A stretch of 63,799 nucleotides of DNA, the filler included, from Cladosporium halotolerans (taxonomy: Eukaryota): NCBI RefSeq assembly GCF_011745625.1. It is 32 parts of 32 records of this genome, joined end to end, with 100 filler letters (N's around TTAATTAATTAA, not from the genome) between each part and the next. Parts side by side here need not be neighbours in the genome. Positions count along the whole stretch, not along the records: positions 56,712 to 58,433 come from NW_027191813.1; 31 more parts are not named here. One strand, given 5' to 3'. The notes under the pieces are model-generated. The model saw only the letters and a program-made list of their open reading frames with translations, was not told the DNA's origin and searched no databases. This document shows, in pieces, positions 14,962-62,016 of this stretch. The position numbers and the translations under genes were made by a program. Positions within the stretch are counted from its first letter, which is position 1. The number at the start of each line of letters is the position of its first letter.

Positions 14962-15060
14962 CAGTGGTGTCCACAAGCAAGCAAGCGCCATGCTTGAGGT
15001 CCGCCCGCTTGCTTGCTTGATTTGGGGTCGTGTGCTTGCTTGCTTGCTTGATTCGACCGA
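14962..15060 (+). mobile_element. hAT family A terminus (opposite end type)
   Basis: CAGTGGTGTCCACAAGCAAGCAAG plus (TTGC)n; near-identical to 21271 and 35557. Confidence 0.85.
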
Positions 15061-17266: not shown

Positions 17267-18015
17267 ACATTCGGGGAAGCAGTGCGCAGAATCGACGCTG
17301 CGTGGCCTGGCAACCACACTCGGCGCATGTACGACGAGCTCAGCAAAAGACAGGCGAGTGTCCTCTCGCAGCTCCGCACAGGGATGACACCACTGAACAT
17401 GTGCTTGCACAACATCAAAGCAGTGGAAAAATGCGGCGAGGCAGTCGAGTCGAGAGAACATTTCATCTTTCACTGTGTCAGGTGGAGCGAACAACGGCAG
17501 ATTTTGGGCATATGGACAGGCGATGAGGACCTCCCGCGTCTGCTCGGAGGTAGTGTCTCGACAGATATCGATGACTGGACACCGGACATGGATGCAGTGC
17601 GAGCTGTGATACATTTCACCCTGGCTACCAAACGGTTCGAACGAGACACCAGCGCGCGAGGGCGAACGACGATGTAGAAGATTATCAGCGACGACCCGAA
17701 ACCCCGTACCCTACTAACCATAAACTTCGCACACCAACCACGCACCCTCGTGCACACGGCAGGCCCCCGCTTCATCTGCTGAAGATAGGACGATGAACAC
17801 TTGGAAACACATCTTCAAGAACACCCGCCGACCAGTAATCACGAGCCTTCCAAAGTGAGAGAAATACATGTCGATGGCTTGACTTCAATGGTGAAGGACA
17901 ATGAGTTTGGGAGCTTTGTTTCAACCCCACCAAGATAGGACGTAAACTTTGAGACGTAAATAGTGCGTTGCCCTTTAGGTGCTTAGCGCCGGGCGGAATA
18001 AAGTTCATCATCATC
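17267..18015 (+). mobile_element. LINE 3' end (same family as 6596-7846)
   Basis: RRIDAAWPGNHTRRMYDELSKRQAS...TLATKRFE; tail GGCGGAATAAAGTTCATCATCATC. Confidence 0.9.
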
Positions 18016-18035
18016 GACAAGACGTGTAAACAAGG

Positions 18036-18199
18036 TGTTGATCAATTTCTGATCAGTAGCATCGTACGCAAGATCATTCCCATACATTCTCTACATTCTG
18101 GAGGTAAGGACTGTATATATGTAGCCAACCTGAAACACTAGCGTATGATGAGCTGATAACAGCTGCAGTGTTAAAGGGCAGGAACCCAGTTTCACAACA
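18036..18199 (-). mobile_element. Solo LTR (164 bp) with 5-bp target site duplication
   Basis: TGTTG...CAACA termini flanked by CAAGG at 18031-18035 and 18200-18204; second partial copy at 23298; orientation tentative. Confidence 0.85.
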
Positions 18200-18249
18200 C
18201 AAGGCGATACACTATGGCATTGCAAAAGACAGCCTGCTGCGTCATGCGG

Positions 18250-18441
18250 TGTCAAGCGTTCTGTGATGCGCACCTTCGTGCGAAGAAGACGGTACCTTAG
18301 ATAGGGTCTATGAATAGGACGTAGCTCGAAGAGCTACAAGTGAGGGTTAGAGCGGGATTCTTAGGTGAAGCCGACGCTCGGCTTACCTGCTATTCTATAG
18401 TCACGAACATTATCGGCATACCACGGGCTTGGCCCGTAACA
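18250..18441 (-). mobile_element. LTR-like remnant
   Basis: Reverse complement TGTTACGGG...TGACA; shares two hairpin motifs with the LTR at 18546; left boundary uncertain. Confidence 0.55.
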
Positions 18442-18545
18442 TTTATATTTGGAATATAAAGGCATCAACTTAAAGATCTAGACCTTAAATTGAATTTGAA
18501 TTAGAAGCATGAAGTAAGGAGTGCTTTAGTAAACTGTAATATATG

Positions 18546-18779
18546 TGTCACGGTCGGGATCCCGGATCCCGTGATATTGCTTATAGTGCTTGAGAAGGCA
18601 GGTAAGCCGAGCTCCGGCTTGACATGCGCTTCTCCTTTCTATATGTTTGTAGCTCTTCGAGCTACGTCCTCGTCATTCAAGCAGCCACCGGGTTGCGACC
18701 GAGACCGTACGTAGCTCTGTATCTGATCTGATTGGCAACTATACCTACGTACTGCGCACACTGCCTCCCGCCCGTGACA
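18546..18779 (+). mobile_element. Solo LTR-like element (234 bp)
   Basis: 8-bp terminal inverted repeat TGTCACGG...CCGTGACA; no TSD seen. Confidence 0.7.
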
Positions 18780-18881
18780 GCAGAGATGCGTCTAGATAGT
18801 GCGAAGTCACACCTAGAAAGTCAAGGCCGTTATCGGCGGTCCAATTGTCGACGTTATGCTGCTGCTGGCTGCCCGCCTCAG

Positions 18882-19171
18882 CATAGATCTTGAATCTTGA
18901 ATATTCAGAATCAGAGAGAGCTCAATCAGAAATCAAATCAATCAGGTGGGCACTCAATCAGAAATCAATCGCCAATCAGGTGTCATTCATAGCCATCATT
19001 ATCGTCGCTGTCCATGATATTGCCGTCAACCTTCATATCAGCAATTCCTTTTCTCTGCCAGTCTTTGAACAGCTCTAGACGCCCGATCGTGGCACCATTC
19101 AATTGGGAACGATCCCACGAGGTCGTTCGCCTTGCACTACTGAATGTCCGTTCAGACTCTGCACTCATCGC
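18882..19171 (-). mobile_element. hAT family C 3' end with transposase C-terminus
   Basis: TIR CATAGATCTTGAATCTTGAA; AMSAESERTFSSARRTTSW is homologous to the ORF ending at 47234. Confidence 0.9.
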
Positions 19172-19268
19172 CAGAGGTGTGCACAATCAATTTTTTACTT
19201 GACAACTTGATTGATTGATTGTTGACTAAGCAATCAATCAAGTTGCACCTCATGACCAATCAATCAAT
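19172..19268 (+). mobile_element. hAT family B terminus nested in the family C transposase
   Basis: CAGAGGTGTGCACAATCAA plus (CAAT/ATTG)n; reverse complement of 29736-29833. Confidence 0.8.
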
Positions 19269-21270: not shown

Positions 21271-21369
21271 CAGTGGTGTCCACAAGCAAGCAAGCGCCGT
21301 GCTTGAGGTCCGTCCGCTTGCTTGCTTGATATGCGGTATTGTGCTTGCTTGCTTGCTTGAATAGACCGA
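21271..21369 (+). mobile_element. hAT family A terminus
   Basis: Identical to 35557-35655. Confidence 0.85.
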
Positions 21370-29735: not shown

Positions 29736-29833
29736 AATTGATTGATTGGTCATGAGGTGCAACTTGATTGATTGCTTAGTCAACAATCAATCAATCAAGT
29801 TGTCAAGTAAAAAATTGATTGTGCACACCTCTG
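29736..29833 (-). mobile_element. hAT family B terminus
   Basis: Ends ...TTGATTGTGCACACCTCTG; reverse complement of 19172-19268. Confidence 0.8.
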
Positions 29834-35556: not shown

Positions 35557-35655
35557 CAGTGGTGTCCACAAGCAAGCAAGCGCCGTGCTTGAGGTCCGTC
35601 CGCTTGCTTGCTTGATATGCGGTATTGTGCTTGCTTGCTTGCTTGAATAGACCGA
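35557..35655 (+). mobile_element. hAT family A terminus
   Basis: Identical to 21271-21369. Confidence 0.85.
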
Positions 35656-45522: not shown

Positions 45523-47234
45523 GCTTGTCACATCTGAGCGTCACAAGCGACGCTTTCAAGGACATGATACTGGCTGCTAATCCAGAAGCTGGACACGCAT
45601 TGATCAATGCTGCCACTACACTGAGGCCTCGGATCAAGAGACAGTTTGAAGAGCAACAGCTTGTCGTCATCCAGTGGCTCACTAGGTCGCTGAGCTGCTT
45701 CCACATCTCGACCGACACTTGGAAAGCGAGGCATGGCCACAAGCACTTCCAGGCCGTGAATTGTCAGTTTGTGGACGAATACGGAGTGCTCAGACAGGTA
45801 CTCCTAGATCTCGTTGAGGTGGATGGTGAGCAACGCAAGACTGGCGCCTATCTTGCCTCGCTTCTCATCAAGACATGCCAGGACTACTCGCTACTTCACA
45901 GACTTGGTTGGATCACCTCTGACAATGTCACTGTCAACGACACGCTTGTCCGCTCCATCGAGGCTCACATGCACGACTCTGGCATCCCAGATTGGACCGA
46001 GAAGGCACGACGGCTGCGCTGCATTGGTCATATCATCAATCTAGCGACTCAAGCTTTCATGTTCGCTGACAATGCAGAAGCAGCCGAGATCGCGTACACA
46101 CGTGCTGAACTTTCTCAACTCGACAATCAACTTGACAATGAAAGTCTCTTTAGCATGGAGTCCACGAATGACGGACTTGTCAAGCATCCGGCCTTACAGA
46201 AACTCAAAGCGCTTGCGGTTGCTTTGCGAGAAGATAGGTTCTGGCAGGCATTCAAAACGGTAGCAAGAGGCTTCCCGGAGCTACCCTCGACTGTTCCCAA
46301 GGTTCCGGGCGAGACACGCTGGAACGGATGGCTACTAATGATTGAGGAGGCTTTCCAGACAAGGCCTATTCTGGATGCGCTGCTGGCGCGATGTCACGAC
46401 TCTCTCGAGCTGATGATACTGTCAGACGGAGATTGGCGGCTTCTCAAGCATATTGCAGAATTCCTCACACCCTTTAAGGAGGTCACTAAGAAGAACGAGG
46501 GCCACAAGACGACACTCGACAGCTTTCAACCGAGCATGGAGTTTTTGATAAATCACTTCGAGAAGCAACAGATCCTCCACACACGCCGTGAGGTCATGCT
46601 CAGGCCAATCAACACTGCCTGGCTGTTGTTCGAGAAGTACTACAGTCTCATTGATCAATCAGGCGCATATGTCACAGCACTTCTCTTGCACCCTGAGCGT
46701 CGAGTGAAGTGGCTCAAGAAGCGTTGGACGACCACCGAGAAGAAAAAGTGGTTGACCAGTGGCTTGAAGCGAGCAAGAGACCTGTGGCTCGACTACAAGC
46801 AGCGGCTACAGCCAGAGTCTACAGTCACTGCTGCCAGTACAGAGAGTCTATCAGCATTTGAGAAGTGGCAACAAGACCAAGATGTCGTTCCGGATGAAGA
46901 CGACTTCACTGCGTTCATCAATGCACAGCCGTGCAAGCTACCCATAGTAGGCGAGCGGCAATTGAGCGTGATAGAATGGTGGACTTCACCGCTTCAAAGA
47001 CAATCTTATCCCGCGTTGTCACAGCTAGCGATTGACGTCTTGTCCGCATTTGCGATGAGTGCAGAGTCTGAACGGACTTTCAGCAGTGCAAGGCGAACGA
47101 CCTCGTGGGAGCGTTCCCAACTGGACAGTGCTACGATCAGGCATTCAGAGCTGTCCAAAGACTGGCAGAGGAAAGGAATTGCTGATATGAGGGTCGACGG
47201 CGACGGCACAGACAGCGATGACAACGATGGCTGA
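45523..47234 (+). CDS. hAT family C transposase (5' truncated), followed by subterminal repeats to 47301
   Basis: STDTW, SDNVTVND, RCIGHIINL, TRWNG, YPALSQLAIDVLS, SAESERTFS. Confidence 0.95.
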
Positions 47235-47923
47235 ATGACACCTGATTGCTGATTGATTTCTGATTGAGCGCCCACCTGACTGATTTGATTCCTGATTGAG
47301 CNNNNNNNNNNNNNNNNNNNNNNNNNNNNNNNNNNNNNNNNNNNNTTAATTAATTAANNNNNNNNNNNNNNNNNNNNNNNNNNNNNNNNNNNNNNNNNNN
47401 NTATAGCGCGCTTTTGCGGTGCACATCAAATGAGGTCGCAGAGGACTCGCGCGGCTCATTGCCGATGCCGATGGCTGCACTTTAAATTTTCCAGACTTAC
47501 TTACATCACAACCTATATTTTGTGAGGTAAGTAGATGCCGAGCATTCGGAAGCAATGCAGATGGACATGGAGCTCATAGGTAGCATCTCTTAGCGTCAAA
47601 GGCAACTACGTGGTGTGCATACATTTCGGCAACAGGCTCCGCTTCCCCGAGAACACCTCCACTGTCAGCTTGAATGGCGAAACAATGATCGGCTCGATCA
47701 AGAGTATCAGATCTCTGATTGCGGACGGACTCATGGTTCGACACGCCGAAGATCTACTTGTACCGGTGAATTTTGAAGTTGCCATCGCGCACCTGCTGGT
47801 TCTTAAGGGCGGCTCTTTAAACAGACGATCCATTTCCTCGCACATGCGTACACTACGCACTCTCATTTATTGATCGCATTTTTTCTCAAGTCAAGACCAT
47901 TTAGCCCCATATCTCGACCTGAT

Positions 47924-56711: not shown

Positions 56712-56808
56712 TGATTGCTGATTGATTTCTGATTGAGCGCCCACCTGACTGATTTGATTCCTGATTGAGCTTCACCTGATTCTGAATATTCAAGATTCAA
56801 GATCTATG
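56712..56808 (+). mobile_element. hAT family C 3' terminus
   Basis: Ends TTCAAGATTCAAGATCTATG; overlaps the sequence at 47242-47301. Confidence 0.9.
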
Positions 56809-56954
56809 GAGCAGGGGAAAAGAAAAGAGGACAGGAAGTCGAAAGTAGAAGAAAGAGGAAAAGGATCAACATGAAGGGGATGATGAATATGGACATAGAT
56901 ATAGAGATGAATATAAACATAATCATAGTCAAGAAGGAGGAGGAGAAGATGAAG

Positions 56955-57138
56955 GAACGGGAACAGGAACAAGAACAGGAAGATGAAGTGGAATGTGGAA
57001 ATGGATATTAATAAGAGCAGGAACAGGAACAGGAACAGGAACAGGAACAGGAGAGAGGAACAGGAGAAAGGAACAGGAGAAAGGAACAGGAGAAAGGAAC
57101 AGGAGAAAGGAACAGGAGAAAGGAACAGGAGAAAGGAA
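56955..57138. repeat. (AGGAAC)n and 13-bp (GGAGAAAGGAACA)n tandem repeats
   Basis: Direct inspection; about 6 copies of the 13-mer. Confidence 0.9.
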
Positions 57139-58335
57139 GATGTAATTGGTTATAGATTATAATGAAAAGATGAGATGGTTGAAGGAAAGGGAAGGGGGAA
57201 GGAAAGAAGGAGGGTGAAATGGATTGGAATGGTAGGGTGAATGATTGTTAAGGATTGGAAAGGATAGAGAGGGAAAGGGAGAAGAGAAAAAAAGAAAAGA
57301 AAGTATTGTGGGTGGAATAGAAAGAGAGAGTGAGGAGGAAAGGGTATAGAGTATAGGGATGAAAAGAAGTGGATATGGAGTAGGTAGTTAGGATGAGATA
57401 GTAAGGTAAATATGAGAGGGAGTGGGATGGGAGGGTAAAAAGGAAAGAGTAGGTTGTTGTAAGGGATAGGGAGTGATTTGAGAGGAGAGAGAGTGATGTA
57501 TAAGAAGTAGAGTGGAGTGTTTTAGGGTTAGGGTGTGTGGAAGTTGGGGGATTGGGATGGGGAGGGTTTTATATAAGAAAAGAAAGGGAGGATTTAGAGG
57601 GGTGAGATAGAAGGGGAAGTTTGAGTGTATGTAGGGTATAGAAAGGAGGGTTTGGGGGATGGTTGTTAGAGAGGGGTGAGAGAGAAATGAAGGATTAGGG
57701 AGAGGAGAAGGGTTGTATTTGAGAGAATGTGAAGAGAGGGGAAATTAAGAAGAGGAATGGATGGGATGGAAGATATGGGTTGGTAGAAAGAAGTTGAGGA
57801 TGAGAAAGATATGGTAGTATTGATTGAGGGATATTGATTGAGGGGAAGGTTGAAATTGGTTGGATTTAGGGTGAGGGTGAGGGTGTGTAGGAGTTAAGGA
57901 ATAGGAGGTGGGTAATGTGATATGGAGGAGGAAGGTGGATGATTGGGGTTGGGTAGTGAGTGTTTGGAAGGGTATGGTGAGAGAAGTGAGAGGGAGAGAT
58001 AGGGGGGAAGAGTGTGAGGGTTAGGGTGTATGGAAGTTTAGGGAATGAATTAGAGAGGGATGTGTGAGGGAAAAAGGAAGAAGGGAGGGAGAGAGGGAGG
58101 GAGAGGGGAAAGGTAAAGGATGGGATGAAAGGAGAGAGAGTGGATTTGGGTGGAGGATGTGAGTTGGTAGATAAAGGTTGAGGGTGAGGGTGTGTAGAAG
58201 TTGGGAAATGGGAGGATGGGTTAGGGTGAAATGGAAGAGGAGAGTGGGTATGAGGAAGGAAGATAGAAAAGGGATGAAGTGTTGAATGAGATGAGTTAGA
58301 GGAGAGATAGGGAGGGAGAGAAGAATGAAGTGAGT
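57127..58335. other. 1,209-bp cytosine-free (+ strand) purine-rich tract
   Basis: No C between the C at 57126 and the C at 58336. Confidence 0.95.
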
Positions 58336-58533
58336 CACGAGCTATCTATCCTCCTAGGGTTAGACTTCAATATACGACTTACATCTTGTTTTACTTCACT
58401 AGCATATAGACTAAGTACAGTTCTATCGCCCTANNNNNNNNNNNNNNNNNNNNNNNNNNNNNNNNNNNNNNNNNNNNTTAATTAATTAANNNNNNNNNNN
58501 NNNNNNNNNNNNNNNNNNNNNNNNNNNNNNNNN

Positions 58534-59433
58534 GACGGCGTAGCGCGGGCCCATGTTGGCGTCGTCTACGATGAAGCCGCGCATGGTCAGGCGTTTGGAA
58601 ATGATCTGCATGAGGTTGCGGATCGGGTATTGGTTCCCCGGGAGTAGGTTGTACTGCGAGATCATGCCGCAGGCGACGATGCGGCCGAAGTTGTTCATGC
58701 ACGTGATCGCCGCCTCGAGCTGCTCGCCGCCGACATTGTCGTAGTAGATGTCGACGCCGTCGGGCGCCAGGCGCTTCAGTGCGTCGAGGGGCTTCTCCTT
58801 CTTGTAGTTGAAGCCAGCGTCGAACTTCAGGTCCTTGGTGATGAATCCGAGCTTGGCGTCGTCGCCGACGGAGCCAATGACGGTCAGGCCCTCGTTCTTG
58901 GCCAGCTGGCCGACGACCTGACCGACGGGGCCGGCGGCGGAGGAGATGAAGATGGTGTCGCCCTTCTTGGGAGCACCGATGTCGTAGAAGGAAGAGTAGG
59001 CGGTCAGGCCGGGCATGCCAAGGGGACCGAGGAAGTACTTGACGTCGAGGTTGTAGGGATTGACGATAACGGTGGCGCTATCAACGACCTCTCTGGGCAA
59101 AGCGGCGTACTCGGCGGTGGGAATCTGAAAAAGGTTGACGATCTGGTCACCAGCCTTGAAGTTGGGATTGTCACTCTTGAGGACGGTCGCGATGCCGCCG
59201 TTGGTGATTGCGCTGTCGAGCTCGTAGGCGGGATTGTAAGACTTGACGTGGCTGGGTCGTATGCGGCCGCGCTGGTAGGGGTCGAAGGAGATATAGTGGA
59301 TCTTGATGGTGACGCCGCCGGCGGGGGGAGCTTGCCCGAGGTCAAAAGTACTTTTCTTGATGCCGATGTGCTCGCCGGGTACAATCTTCCCGCTGGAATG
59401 GGCAAGGTACGTGAGAGTCTTGTTTTGTGCCAT
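58534..59433 (-). CDS. NADP-dependent zinc-independent MDR oxidoreductase (prostaglandin reductase/alkenal reductase-like), 3' truncated
   Basis: SFDPYQRGR, LGMPGLTAY, SSAAGPVGQVVGQLAK, DIYYDNVGG, CGMISQYN. Confidence 0.92.
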
Positions 59434-60353: not shown

Positions 60354-61919
60354 TTTTTTTTTTTTTTTTTTTTTTTTTTAATCATACTGCATTCAAGCTA
60401 TATAGCTTATGGCATGTCGGAAAATATCGCGACCATCTCTATGACTTCCACGTGTGCTCTCGCTTCGGTAATCGTCCGCACAAACTTGCTCGCTGTCCCG
60501 ACTTCACCAAGTCGCCACTGCTTTCGGGCTTGGTGCCCTCCTACTTTCCTGTCGTTATCACTCCTCATCTTTCCCCTTAGCCCCTTCCGTCCTCCAACAT
60601 CCTGTCTTCCTCATCTGCACTCCGATCCAAACGTTCGATGTCCCACGAGTCATTCTTGTTGGCATCTCCAACCGGCTTCTTGCCCACTTCTGTGTTTTCA
60701 ATAAATTGAAGGACCTCTATGATAGTTTTATTTGCGAACATTGTCTTCAGGTCTGCTAGGTTTCGCCGTCTGCTGATCGAGAGCTTTCTCGCGCGCAGCT
60801 TCCGCAGCATAGTGTCCCGCTGCCTTCGCCACTTCCGGCACTCCAGCAAGAGGTGAGCGACGGTTTGACTGCTCTCGCCACACCACCAGCACTGTGCGTC
60901 CTCGACTTTGCCGATCCTTAGCAGGTGAGCTCCCGTGACAGCATGACCGGACTTGAGCTGCAGGTATCGAGCTGCAACTGACTTCCTCGCATCTTCGATG
61001 TGTTTGTTCATCTTGGCAGTTGGCTTCCACCTCTCCTTAATGGCTTGTTTCACGTACGACAGCGAGGCTGATCGCATCTCTTTGGGTTGTTGCTTTGCCG
61101 CTCGTTGTGCCGCGGCTCGGGCTATCTTGTAGCCCTCAACATCTTCGCAATTTGAGAGCCACGTCAAAACCACTCGGCCTCCTGCTTCTTCGACACCGTG
61201 TGCGTGTCTTTTGATACCGGTGACGACTGGCGGTGTCCATTGCTCGCTGCTCTGAATGGCGGCCAATGCAACCCGCGACTCCGTAACAATCTCGGCACGG
61301 AGGTGATTCGTCCTCGAGAGTATCGGGATGAGGTTCTTCGCACCCATGCTGATCGCAACTATCGCCGCGTCGGCTGTTGTGATGTGATTACCCAGCGATG
61401 ACATTTTGGTCTTCCACGCACGGCATTCTCTCCATGCGATCCCCAGACCAAAACTAACATCCTTAGTTGTGCTCACGAACAGTGTTAGTTGCTGCGGATT
61501 GTCGGGTTGCATTCTTTGCGGCATCTGCGAGTAGCCTTGGGTCCGGATCACTGGGCTTGTTGTAGGTGAGTCCACCTTGCGAGGCAGCTCGAATCCGTAC
61601 TCGGTGTCGTAGCTGACGTGCCTCGCTACCTGCTGTGCGAGTCTGCTTCCGAACGATCGGTGTGTCTTTTCTGCTCTCATCCATCCAATGCTAGACGGCT
61701 GACCCGTTGCTCCTTCGTGTCTATAAAGCTCGCCGAGACGGAAATTGGCGGGCAGGAGCTGGTGCGTTGGATGATCTCCATTCGCATTGAGCGCCCGCAC
61801 CGCGAACGACGTCTGGCGACGGTCGAGAAGGTCTTGTGCGGTGGGCAGGCACGATTCCGTCCGAAGAAAGGCCAGAGGGGTCGATGTCAACAGCCCTGTG
61901 ATGGCTCTCGCTTGGCTGT
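60354..61919 (-). mobile_element. Poly(A)-tailed LINE 3' part (degenerate RNase H, zinc knuckle; ORF 60577-61890)
   Basis: T26 tail; YLQLKSGHAVTGAHL...CWWCGESSQTVAHLLLEC. Confidence 0.9.
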
Positions 61920-62016
61920 CATAGATCTTGAATCTTGAATATTCAGAATCAGGTGAAGCTCAATCAGGAATCAAATCAGTCAGGTGGGCGCTCAATCAGA
62001 AATCAATCAGCAATCA
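61920..62016 (-). mobile_element. hAT family C terminus inserted in the LINE ORF2
   Basis: CATAGATCTTGAATCTTGAA; exact reverse complement of 56712-56808. Confidence 0.9.

Follow-up and report, generated by a model that had tools for sequence, protein, structure and literature searches.

Can a kilobase of complex DNA dispense altogether with one of the four bases and, if it can, what keeps that base out? The question is posed by a contig of the fungus Cladosporium halotolerans (NW_027191813.1), in which 1209 consecutive bases of the + strand are without cytosine. This contig forms part of the window, the whole stretch of 63,799 nucleotides that was analysed. The window was made by joining 32 small unplaced contigs end to end, with 31 linkers of the form N-TTAATTAATTAA-N between them, and all positions given here refer to it. 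We propose that the tract lies next to a telomere and that, at somewhat less than even odds, its cytosine has been removed from a strand left single at the chromosome end. The evidence for each part of this proposal, and the alternatives to it, are of unequal strength and are taken up in turn.

A tract of three letters

The cytosine-free tract (57127..58335, + strand) is composed of 536 G, 417 A and 256 T, with a base count of 0 for C. The first-pass annotation, made before any comparison with other data, had reported a 1,209-base stretch of A, G and T alone, and the same sequence recurs in all four of the public runs whose assembled Logan contigs served for the comparison of strains (X2, X5, X6 and X10, each from a different study). 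Nowhere else in the 63.8-kb window does a C-free run exceed 43 bases, and no G-free run exceeds 36. With C at a frequency of 5%, the probability of meeting 1209 bases in a row without it would be about 1e-27, and with C at 10% about 1e-55.

Guanine makes up 44% of the tract and thymine 21%. T is thus not in excess, in agreement with the earlier view that a simple C-to-T conversion of ordinary DNA does not account for the sequence. The description of the tract as mostly non-repetitive is likewise borne out. Dinucleotides occur at 0.82-1.18 of expectation (TpA at 0.82; TpG, counted 119 times, at 1.05), a search for periodicity or a hidden satellite returned no lag above z 3.5, and Tandem Repeats Finder reported only arrays of at most 28 bases within the tract, its hexamer arrays being limited to one 18-base array of AGGGTG. 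The diversity of 6-mers equals that of shuffles, as in a random three-letter sequence, while repeated 12-mers exceed the shuffles (z 7.2). Runs of GGG or longer number 66, and the exact hexamers TTAGGG and TGAGGG, both remarked on at first pass, are present seven and eight times, respectively.

The + strand of the tract holds no CpG and has a GC skew of 1.0 over 1.2 kb. Its predicted single-strand folding energy is close to 0 on both strands (0.0 to -0.3 kcal/mol for 600-base halves), as against -0.147 +/- 0.027 kcal/mol per base in 31 control segments. A G4Hunter score of at least 1.2 is reached in 271 of 1184 windows of the tract versus 347 of 58233 in the remainder of the analysed DNA. R-loop-forming sequences are recognized by clusters of G followed, on the non-template strand, by at least 40% G over at least 100 bases; by this rule, applied with our own script, the tract qualifies, with seven G-cluster initiation motifs that are each followed by 43-48% G. 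No Rfam family matched positions 56712-58433 on either strand at E-values up to 1, and no Pfam family was found in any of the six long reading frames of the tract, the long open frames on the complement arising because a G-free strand can carry no stop codon other than TAA. The tract is neither coding nor a known structured RNA gene. The literature searched yielded no published description of a complete absence of one base over more than 1 kb of complex DNA. Little weight attaches to the finding of 0 loci for a 25-base tract word in metagenome_contigs, or of none for a degenerate form of the 24-base anchor described below in metagenome_contigs and genome_contigs, since these collections are not fungal genome sets.

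Borders and flanking sequence

The tract sits in an orphan contig of 1722 bases that has repeat junctions at both ends, one of them hAT-like. The repeat at the left contig end (56712..56808), outside the tract, has all 97 of its bases in common with 61920-62016 read as reverse complement (100% identity), is 92% identical to 18882-18978, and coincides over its first 59 bases with 47243-47301, at one end of a contig encoding a hAT dimerisation domain. It is probably the end of a hAT-type transposon. Because this repeat is common to three other contigs of the window, the contig belongs to this genome. When the neighbouring contig was searched at the protein level, the best named relatives were from Dothideomycetes, at 62-67% identity, and proteins without a name reached 82-94%. 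In X2 and X6 a different sequence precedes 56809.

From 56809 onward X2, X5 and X6 share a purine-rich, C-poor proximal zone (56809..56952, + strand; purines 79-82%, C 6-7%), in which all nine C precede A (eight) or G (one). It is followed by two minisatellites that were delimited with Tandem Repeats Finder (56953..57138, + strand): (AGGAAC)n, with a period of 6 and 28.7 copies, and (AGGAACAGGAGAA)n, with a period of 13, 9.4 copies and 97% matches. Their copy number varies among strains, 59 bases being skipped in X5 and X6, and they contribute to a T-free run of 128 bases (57013-57140). Counted over all 318 bases adjoining the tract (56809-57126), C occurs 25 times, 23 of them in CpA. An earlier impression that the tract grades leftward through a C-poor zone is not sustained. 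Through 57126, where the region has its last C, every 100-base bin contains 6-10% C; from 57127, at the end of the 13-base minisatellite, there is none in 1209 bases. The left border is a step.

The right border is of another kind. The C-free run does stop at 58335, as had been noted, but the boundary between 58335 and 58336 lies 98 bases from the contig end and is a repeat junction instead of a natural border. In this strain the tract is interrupted by a second contig-end repeat (58336..58433), itself outside the tract, which is present elsewhere in X2: 58335-58433 recurs there, with 11 differences and other sequence before it, in a 5510-letter contig at a depth of 113.7 (31.5 for the tract). 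Past 58334, X5 and X6 continue with two telomere-type hexamers and more C-free sequence (30 letters shown, no C). Both contig ends are thus best read as repeat or transposon junctions and not as natural limits of the tract.

The tract in other strains

Part of the stretch is contained in 20 of the 24 listed runs, which come from 19 studies; three runs on record as RNA contain just 0.04-0.09 of the sampled words. Where a single run left a stretch uncovered, as X2 did at 57118-57291, the gap was given no weight. Single contigs bridge the C-containing and C-free parts (X5 record 9 and X6 record 15), running through a minisatellite with its ordinary C and on into the C-free sequence. The depth of the tract is equal to that of its unique neighbour (31-55 versus 47.7 in X2, 45-58 versus 55.6 in X5), which suggests that it is present as a single copy.

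Strains that share the tract differ by about 1.4%, or 17 differences in approximately 1200 bases. These 17 variant places comprise ten G>A, three A>G, three T>A and one G>T, and none is a change to C; in the contig pieces of X5, two of the 19 differing letters are not itemised, one of them within 57108-57303. The approximately 52 mismatches between internal repeat pairs (D2, D3, D5, D8 and D10-D12) likewise never involve C, and internal copies in the tract have diverged by 20-29% without acquiring one. These patterns indicate that the avoidance of C is ongoing. Structural variation is also found between strains, in a 6-base unit, in the 59-base minisatellite difference, in the telomere junction described below and in repeat insertions.

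The tract is real, heritable fungal DNA. An origin in bisulfite-converted or chemistry-damaged reads, in mis-assembly or in a contaminant might be suspected of an orphan 1.7-kb contig, lying among unplaced contigs and joining repeats at both ends, and the first-pass annotation had wondered about support from only a few single-orientation or low-quality reads and about bisulfite contamination. The recurrence of the sequence in four of four runs from four studies, with ordinary strain differences, the bridging contigs, the spread over most of the listed runs and the left repeat that ties the contig to this genome leave such an artefact a negligible chance.

Attachment to the telomere

A 616-letter contig of X10 matches 57342-57928 without a difference and then continues, to the contig end, with 29 letters of (GGTTAG)n. 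The tract is here joined directly to perfect telomere repeats (57928..57929, + strand), a junction seen in one contig of one run, whose type, RNA or DNA, is a guess. The contig in the window has no terminal telomere array of its own. Since the telomere repeats in X10 follow on the + strand, the C-free and G-rich one, this strand is the telomeric G-strand and runs 5' to 3' toward the chromosome tip. The tract is telomere-adjacent (subtelomeric) DNA, joined to a telomere array in X10 only. The remark that no standard fungal feature accounts for it therefore no longer applies to its location, and the earlier hint of a telomere proved sound. Toward the tip, the fraction of G climbs from 0.34 to 0.45-0.51 and that of A drops from 0.48 to 0.26-0.36, with purines constant at about 0.8.

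Words resembling the telomere repeat occur more often than in dinucleotide shuffles (z 5.4-8.8), the observed count being reached by none of 200, and they form six islands, all in the distal two thirds of the tract, spaced every 150-340 bases. Associated with these islands is an anchor of 24 bases in four copies, all on the + strand and each opening with two telomere-type hexamers that are followed by the same 12 bases, TGTGTGGAAGTT. The first copy (57522..57545) coincides with the island at 57519-57526. The second (57872..57895) has an extra TTAGGG ahead of it at 57866, and a 6-base unit at 57868 is absent from X2, X5 and X6. The third (58015..58038) accompanies the island at 58011-58018, and the fourth (58179..58202) those at 58179-58181 and 58216-58219. 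Outside an anchor of 24-35 bases, the units cannot be aligned above the background expected of three letters. The enriched words, the islands and the anchor together point to telomere ancestry for the tract. Of the two marks of a degenerate telomere-repeat array, the enrichment of words is there, and a residual 6-base periodicity through the tract is not (lag 6, z 2.1).

Proposed loss of cytosine from an exposed strand

The explanation that we favour, at a probability of roughly 0.45, is that the tract is a telomere-adjacent block, derived in part from telomerase repeats, which is kept C-free by strand-specific loss of C on a single strand exposed at the chromosome end. From the inside to the tip, the layout would begin with purine-rich, C-poor DNA and a pair of minisatellites that are likewise rich in purines, continue with a block of 1.2 kb or more that is written in G, A and T and carries the telomere-type islands, and close with a (TTAGGG)n telomere. 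The starting DNA would already have been poor in C, coming in part from telomerase-made repeats and purine-rich satellites, and C would later have been removed from this strand far faster than it was gained. The G-strand may be bared as single-stranded DNA in the 3' overhang that follows 5' resection, or as a constant lagging-strand template, and possibly also as the displaced strand of R-loops formed by tip-directed transcription. A C deaminated to U while the partner strand is absent would be copied as T, beyond repair, and the G of the same strand would be untouched. The exposed strand, predicted to be unable to fold on itself and dense in G runs, would then also offer many seeds from which telomerase could rebuild a lost tip, as X10 may exemplify.

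A count of zero C in 1209 bases bounds the equilibrium frequency of C at about 0.25%, by our own arithmetic, and such a bound would place the loss of C relative to its gain more than 100-fold above that in ordinary DNA. A bias of this size seems out of reach of spontaneous deamination in DNA that is single-stranded only transiently; an enzyme or near-constant exposure would be needed. There are experimental precedents for the individual steps. At uncapped yeast telomeres, resection converts subtelomeric DNA into a long, exposed 3' overhang, in which APOBEC3G or sulfite produces dense substitutions almost only at C of the overhang strand (PMC3521656), and resection may extend up to 15 kb, leaving strand-biased clusters of mutations (PMC2577886).

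Strand-specific deamination of DNA that is often single-stranded had been one of three options listed at first pass. It fits the orientation of the tract and becomes the leading mechanism, but the trace of conversion that might have been expected of it was not found. The step at 57126/57127 counts against it, since resection that depends on distance predicts a gradient. Words of the proximal zone that recur in the tract with C replaced do so as 39 T, 89 A and 98 G (k=7), in keeping with base composition and not with a C-to-T footprint, a comparison of low power. TpA is itself slightly low (0.82). An unconverted progenitor did not emerge from the rest of the window (approximately 60 kb) when blastn was run on either strand with C collapsed to T, A or G; matches of at most 65 columns, at about 77-100% identity, were all that was obtained and amount to noise for a three-letter alphabet.

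A broader version of the favoured explanation, which we consider less likely than not, is that the lineage maintains a kilobase-sized, mostly non-repetitive three-letter domain at its chromosome ends by active, strand-specific erasure of C. The eraser could be an endogenous deaminase of single-stranded DNA, or deamination coupled to R-loops or to resection at more than 100 times the normal bias, and selection for an overhang that is unable to fold back may reinforce its effect.

Alternative explanations

The other two options of the first pass, a functional skew element and template-independent or slippage-like synthesis, survive as rivals without taking the lead, and we judge both unlikely. 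In the second of these, the tract would have been assembled from C-free material alone, by telomerase additions after repeated loss of the tip, slippage of purine satellites, and recombination or template switching, and would be young, or so often renewed, that few C have yet entered. Telomerase copying a G-less template cannot insert C. A step border at the end of a minisatellite resembles an old junction, telomere-type islands recur at short intervals with a common anchor, repeated 12-mers are in excess, and the hexamer unit, the minisatellite copies and the telomere junction of X10 all vary by strain. The bulk of the tract, however, is not hexamer-periodic and has the 6-mer diversity of random three-letter sequence; the X10 end shows telomerase making perfect TTAGGG, so that it would not be the maker of such non-periodic sequence. 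Time is a further difficulty. Strains some 1.4% apart share the tract and yet show no change to C, and the divergence of the internal copies, attained without any C, implies that mutation had time to act.

Alternatively, the strand may be kept C-free by selection because it functions better in that state, a proposition that we would again rate as improbable. The benefit might be an overhang free of hairpins, or of the fold-back priming of inverted duplications; a G-rich strand that forms G-quadruplexes, or R-loops with a C-less TERRA-like RNA; or a supply of seeds on which telomere-binding proteins and telomerase can land. In keeping with these roles are the vanishing folding energy, the abundance of G4Hunter-positive windows and G-cluster motifs, the conservation of the 24-base anchor while the remainder of each unit drifted, and the telomere seeded within the tract in X10; in human subtelomeres, moreover, positive GC skew is reported downstream of TERRA start sites and predicts RNA:DNA hybrids (PMC5286223). 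To purge every C from 1209 sites, however, each C would have to carry a sizeable fitness cost, which is difficult to envisage for non-coding DNA, and no obvious harm comes to strains in which hundreds of bases of the tract are gone (X10) or repeats are inserted in it (the present strain).

Far less probable is a reading of the tract as a series of small mobile units, such as telomere-targeted retroelements, each inserted into telomere repeats and therefore starting with a short telomere tract. Four units do open with two or three telomere-type hexamers and then 12 identical bases, a layout known from the telomere-specific retrotransposons of Pyricularia (PMC8381367). The long frames nonetheless encode neither a reverse transcriptase nor any other Pfam family (six of six), the units cannot be aligned past the anchor, and the absence of C would be left unexplained.

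Repeat-induced point mutation (RIP), carried out by many Dothideomycetes, or a methylation-driven decay of a repeat, can be set aside, as was done at first pass from the abundance of TpG and the retention of G. The signature of RIP, an excess of TpA with CpA and TpG depleted, is absent (TpA at 0.82 of expectation, TpG at 1.05, G at 44%). G>A is indeed the commonest strain difference (10 of 17), but the product is not AT-rich, both strands would be affected, the preferred target CpA is intact next door (23 of the 25 C of the adjoining zone) and the depth suggests a single copy.

Comparison with known systems

Subtelomeres with a G-rich skew and telomere-like seeds were known already; a stretch of more than 1 kb from which one base is missing entirely, and stably across strains, was not described in the literature searched. 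The closest counterpart in layout is found in the class A subtelomeres of Chlamydomonas reinhardtii, which are described as Sultan arrays with telomere-like seeds, a Spacer, a G-rich microsatellite and transposons (PMC8287924). Read from the tip inward, both have a telomere, seed-headed units, a G- or purine-rich micro- or minisatellite and transposable elements, and the role proposed for the Chlamydomonas seeds is the priming of telomere healing at breaks, distal units being lost in the process; the X10 junction is of this kind. In contrast to the tract, Sultan elements are, in that description, well-conserved tandem repeats at most chromosome ends, whereas the units of the tract share only the 24-base anchor and are otherwise unique, single-copy by depth and wholly without one base, a feature not encountered in the Chlamydomonas account.

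The uncapped yeast telomeres (PMC3521656, PMC2577886) resemble the tract in the strand concerned, the one left after 5' resection, in the restriction to C almost alone, and in an extent of kilobases of subtelomere. As portrayed in those reports, they differ in being acute laboratory events, brought about by the cdc13-1 mutant together with APOBEC3G, sulfite or UV and yielding a few changes per kilobase. The tract, on the other hand, is a natural, fixed and complete state, for which a deaminase and uncapping are only putative. The skew at human TERRA promoters (PMC5286223) is comparable in that the G-rich non-template strand faces the telomere, over the last 1-2 kb and downstream of tandem-repeat promoters. 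The human skew is partial and variable and its regions are CpG-rich, compared with a skew of 1.0 and no CpG on the + strand of the tract. In Pyricularia, too, the telomere junction is strain-specific, and is explained by loss of the tip and formation of a new telomere (PMC8381367), but the excerpts of that paper relied on here describe no adjacent sequence free of a base.

SiRTAs, which are rich in G and T, resemble telomere repeats and promote de novo addition of a telomere where a chromosome has broken, are similar in character; they are short, internal and defined by the binding of Cdc13, whereas the tract is a continuous kilobase at the tip. Immunoglobulin class-switch regions offer a parallel of kilobase scale, with a G-rich non-template strand, R-loops and targeting by a single-strand cytosine deaminase; unlike the tract, they are repetitive and retain C. 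Proximal zones of human telomeres contain the TGAGGG and TTGGGG variants of TTAGGG, but stay hexamer-periodic and, in contrast to the tract, include the C-containing TCAGGG.

Conclusions

A practical warning follows from the setting of the tract, as sequences of this type land in orphan contigs and may be mistaken for artefacts. Whichever cause applies, the tract provides a compact, testable model, with one strand devoid of C, the other devoid of G, and no hairpins. Should selection be responsible, the tract would point to a role for G-rich, unstructured overhang DNA in protecting the end or in healing telomeres. If the cause is mutational, the tract would be a natural record of the time that the G-strand spends single-stranded at a chromosome end, and would point to a powerful activity directed at cytosine in a fungus that is common in air. 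Erasure of C, if real, would be a counterpart in nature, and a fixed one, to what APOBEC and sulfite were made to do experimentally at uncapped telomeres of yeast, and a route not described before by which a chromosome end shapes its own sequence. That one letter is missing altogether suggests a capacity of chromosome ends to rid a repeatedly exposed strand of its cytosine.

Composition of the tract

The + strand of 57127-58335 consists of 1209 bases without a single cytosine (G 536, A 417, T 256, C 0), the second-longest C-free run anywhere in the window being 43 bases. GC skew reaches 0.94 in the 1-kb bin 57001-58000 and stays at or below 0.21 in bins clear of the tract, and the chance of a C-free run of this length is about 1e-27 if C makes up 5% of the bases and about 1e-55 if it makes up 10%. 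The first-pass annotation had described a mostly non-repetitive tract with many GGG runs, scattered TTAGGG/TGAGGG motifs, abundant TpG and no excess of T, and this description proved correct on all points examined. Dinucleotides occur at 0.82-1.18 of expectation, z exceeds 3.5 at no lag and internal tandem arrays span at most 28 bases; the tract holds 66 runs of at least three G, with TTAGGG occurring seven times and TGAGGG eight times; TpG stands at 1.05 of expectation and T at 21%. A few old internal duplications account for an excess of repeated 12-mers over shuffles (z 7.2). The G fraction climbs from 0.34 to 0.45-0.51 toward the tip and that of A drops from 0.48 to 0.26-0.36, with purines at about 0.8 all along.

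At the left border C content changes by a step, with no gradient, the neighbouring 318 bases (56809-57126) holding 25 C. The base that follows is A in 23 cases, G in two and T or C in none; 16 of the 25 lie within minisatellite units, and eight of the nine outside the arrays are CpA.

Support from independent sequencing runs

Part of the stretch is present in 20 of 24 listed public runs (19 studies), seven of which hold at least half of the sampled words. Four runs from four studies (X2, X5, X6 and X10) were compared at the level of assembled Logan contigs rather than raw reads, and the tract was found in all four. Three overlapping contigs of X5 cover 57108-58334; X6 covers 57108-58207 and 58243-58334, X2 covers 57306-58334 and X10 covers 57342-57928. 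In X5 record 9 and X6 record 15 the C-containing minisatellite is continuous with the C-free part. Bisulfite-type conversion is excluded, since single molecules pass from normal C content to none. Recurrence in four of four studies, together with these bridging contigs, excludes an artefact and confirms the observation. Judged against the depth of a unique neighbour alone, the locus looks single-copy (X2, 31-55 versus 47.7; X5, 45-58 versus 55.6). Low-depth side branches of X5 contigs at 57303 and 57712 end in an Illumina adapter word and are library read-through, not biology.

Contig borders

The window comprises 32 contigs, sorted by length from 2129 down to 1683 bases and separated by 31 linkers (each 44 N, TTAATTAATTAA and 44 N), and is not a single chromosome piece. 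Since it is an artificial string of unplaced contigs, features that seem to cross a linker have no true adjacency. The tract's own contig (56712-58433, 1722 bases) is an orphan, and matches of its left-end repeat together with right-end data from three runs identify both of its ends as repeat junctions. Its first 97 bases match 61920-62016 perfectly in reverse complement and 18882-18978 at 92% identity, and 59 bases of this repeat recur unchanged at the end of a contig with a hAT transposase domain. In that contig a frame of 569 codons (45525-47234, + strand) encodes a hAT-family dimerisation domain (Pfam PF05699, E 6e-13), and the contig's end runs on into the opening 59 bases of the one that holds the tract. 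On the right, 58335-58433 sits in X2 within a 5.5-kb contig at 3-4 times the tract's depth and is preceded there by other sequence, and X5 and X6 continue beyond 58334 with two telomere-type hexamers and then further C-free letters. The sharp end noted earlier at 58336 is thus a genuine break in this strain but not a natural limit, since a repeat interrupts the tract and X5 and X6 remain C-free past 58334. The strain-shared core is 56809-58334.

Other contigs end in similar fashion. The 97-base repeat also lies at the end of a contig whose 437-codon frame (60577-61890, - strand) has a weak, sub-threshold match to cyclodipeptide synthases (22 bits, where the cut-off is 27; E 1.5e-4). Words of 20 bases common to several contig ends occur at 15041-15060, 21350-21369 and 35636-35655, and also at 19249-19268 and 29736-29755; TGCTTGCTTGAATAGACCGA is the terminal word of two contigs, a near copy terminates a third, and the contig starting at 29736 opens with the terminal word of contig 17267-19268 in reverse complement. 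Dispersed repeat copies are evidently where the assembly broke. The contig after the tract's carries a zinc-type enoyl reductase/alcohol dehydrogenase (58534-59433, - strand), whose best named relatives are from Dothideomycetes (62-67% identity), with other relatives at 82-94%.

Adjacency to a telomere

In X10, a contig of 616 letters matches 57342-57928 with no differences, and its remaining 29 letters, up to the contig end, are perfect (GGTTAG)n. Unique DNA meeting a telomere gives such a contig end in k-mer assembly. On the basis of this one run the tract is telomere-adjacent: in the strain of X10 the telomere begins past 57928, and the junction identifies the + (C-free) strand as the telomeric G-strand, whose 3' direction points to the chromosome tip.

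The one tandem TTAGGG pair of the entire window lies in the tract. Telomere-like words are enriched whichever of the six word settings is used (z 5.4-8.8; none of 200 dinucleotide shuffles matches the observed count) and form six islands within 57459-58219. Four of the islands open copies of a 24-base anchor word (57522, 57872, 58015 and 58179), in which two hexamers (TTAGGG or TGAGGG) are followed by TGTRTRGRAGTT, a pattern derived from these four copies, so that the match holds by construction; past about 35 bases the four units align no better than the three-letter-alphabet background. Read outward toward the tip, the region thus begins with C-poor DNA rich in purines, passes through two minisatellites, (AGGAAC)n and one with a 13-base unit, and reaches the telomere by way of the C-free block and its telomere-type seeds. 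In this strain, transposon-type repeats are inserted in the subtelomeric layout. At 57048-57108 the 13-base minisatellite is shorter by 59 bases in X5 and X6, and one 6-base telomere-type unit at 57868 is absent from X2, X5 and X6.

Origin of the missing base

By our own estimate from fungal mutation spectra, a random substitution at A, G or T would yield C about one time in four. Strains differ at 17 places within the tract (G>A 10, A>G 3, T>A 3, G>T 1), a tally that omits two of the 19 'other letters' of the X5 pieces, and none is a change to C (p about 0.01 under this estimate, or 0.03 if a cluster of five is taken as a single event). That cluster, five differences in eight bases at 57562-57569 (two G>A, TTT>AAA) common to X2, X5 and X6, has the look of a single complex event or a short patch of conversion rather than five hits. 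C likewise occurs in none of about 52 mismatches among internal repeat pairs, and these sequence comparisons show its avoidance to be ongoing. By our arithmetic, zero C in 1209 bases bounds its equilibrium frequency at about 0.25%; either the ratio of C loss to C gain on this strand is more than 100 times that of ordinary DNA, or the DNA is young.

Our preferred reading, to which we give a probability of roughly 0.45, is that initially C-poor DNA was kept C-free through strand-specific cytosine loss. The starting material would have been telomerase-made repeats and purine satellites, and the C-free strand would be the one that is single-stranded at the chromosome end, whether as a 3' overhang after 5' resection, as the constant lagging-strand template or, if tip-directed transcription makes R-loops, as the displaced strand. 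The orientation could have come out otherwise, and the C-free strand is indeed the end-exposed one. In yeast, uncapped telomeres exposed to a single-strand deaminase or sulfite acquire dense substitutions almost only at overhang-strand cytosines (PMC3521656), and resection extends many kilobases (PMC2577886). Against cytosine loss, the border is stepwise rather than graded, and the bias needed seems too large for spontaneous deamination; a conversion footprint was sought in the tract and the window, and none was found. The stepped border better suits a tract built C-free, in which an old healed break was followed by material from C-free sources only, but such construction cannot account for the zero C despite 20-29% divergence among internal copies and 1.4% between strains.

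Alternatively, selection may keep the strand C-free. Over 600 bases, single strands of the tract have a folding energy of 0.0 to -0.3 kcal/mol, whereas 31 controls gave -0.147 +/- 0.027 kcal/mol for each base; with an energy that is essentially nil, an exposed overhang would be unable to hairpin or to prime inverted duplications by fold-back. The tract is also rich in predicted G-quadruplex motifs (G4Hunter at least 1.2 in 271 of 1184 tract windows versus 347 of 58233 elsewhere) and in predicted R-loop motifs (seven G-cluster starts, then 43-48% G). In human subtelomeres, GC skew downstream of TERRA start sites predicts RNA:DNA hybrids, that skew being weaker than the tract's (PMC5286223).

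Other identities fail. RIP, already discounted in the first-pass annotation, is ruled out by TpA at 0.82 and TpG at 1.05 of expectation and by 44% G, and is contradicted next door, where 23 of 25 C are intact in CpA. Long frames on the complement arise because a G-free strand permits TAA stops alone, and with no Pfam family in any of the six a protein-coding role was rejected; no Rfam-type known RNA family matched; and a simple decayed hexamer array is refuted by the lack of a 6-base period and by a 6-mer diversity equal to that of random three-letter sequence.

Conclusions

The layout is like the canonical subtelomere of Chlamydomonas, with its telomere, Sultan units bearing telomere-like seeds, Spacer, G-rich microsatellite and transposons (PMC8287924), and the strain-specific junction resembles the private junctions seen at telomeres of Pyricularia (PMC8381367). 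No published description of such a tract was found in a full-text search of largely open-access literature. A telomere-adjacent block, G-strand skew, telomere-like seeds and junctions that vary by strain are thus known in kind; what had no precedent in that search is the total, strain-stable absence of one base from complex sequence 1.2 kb or more in length, for which strand-specific cytosine loss is the leading candidate mechanism among the readings.
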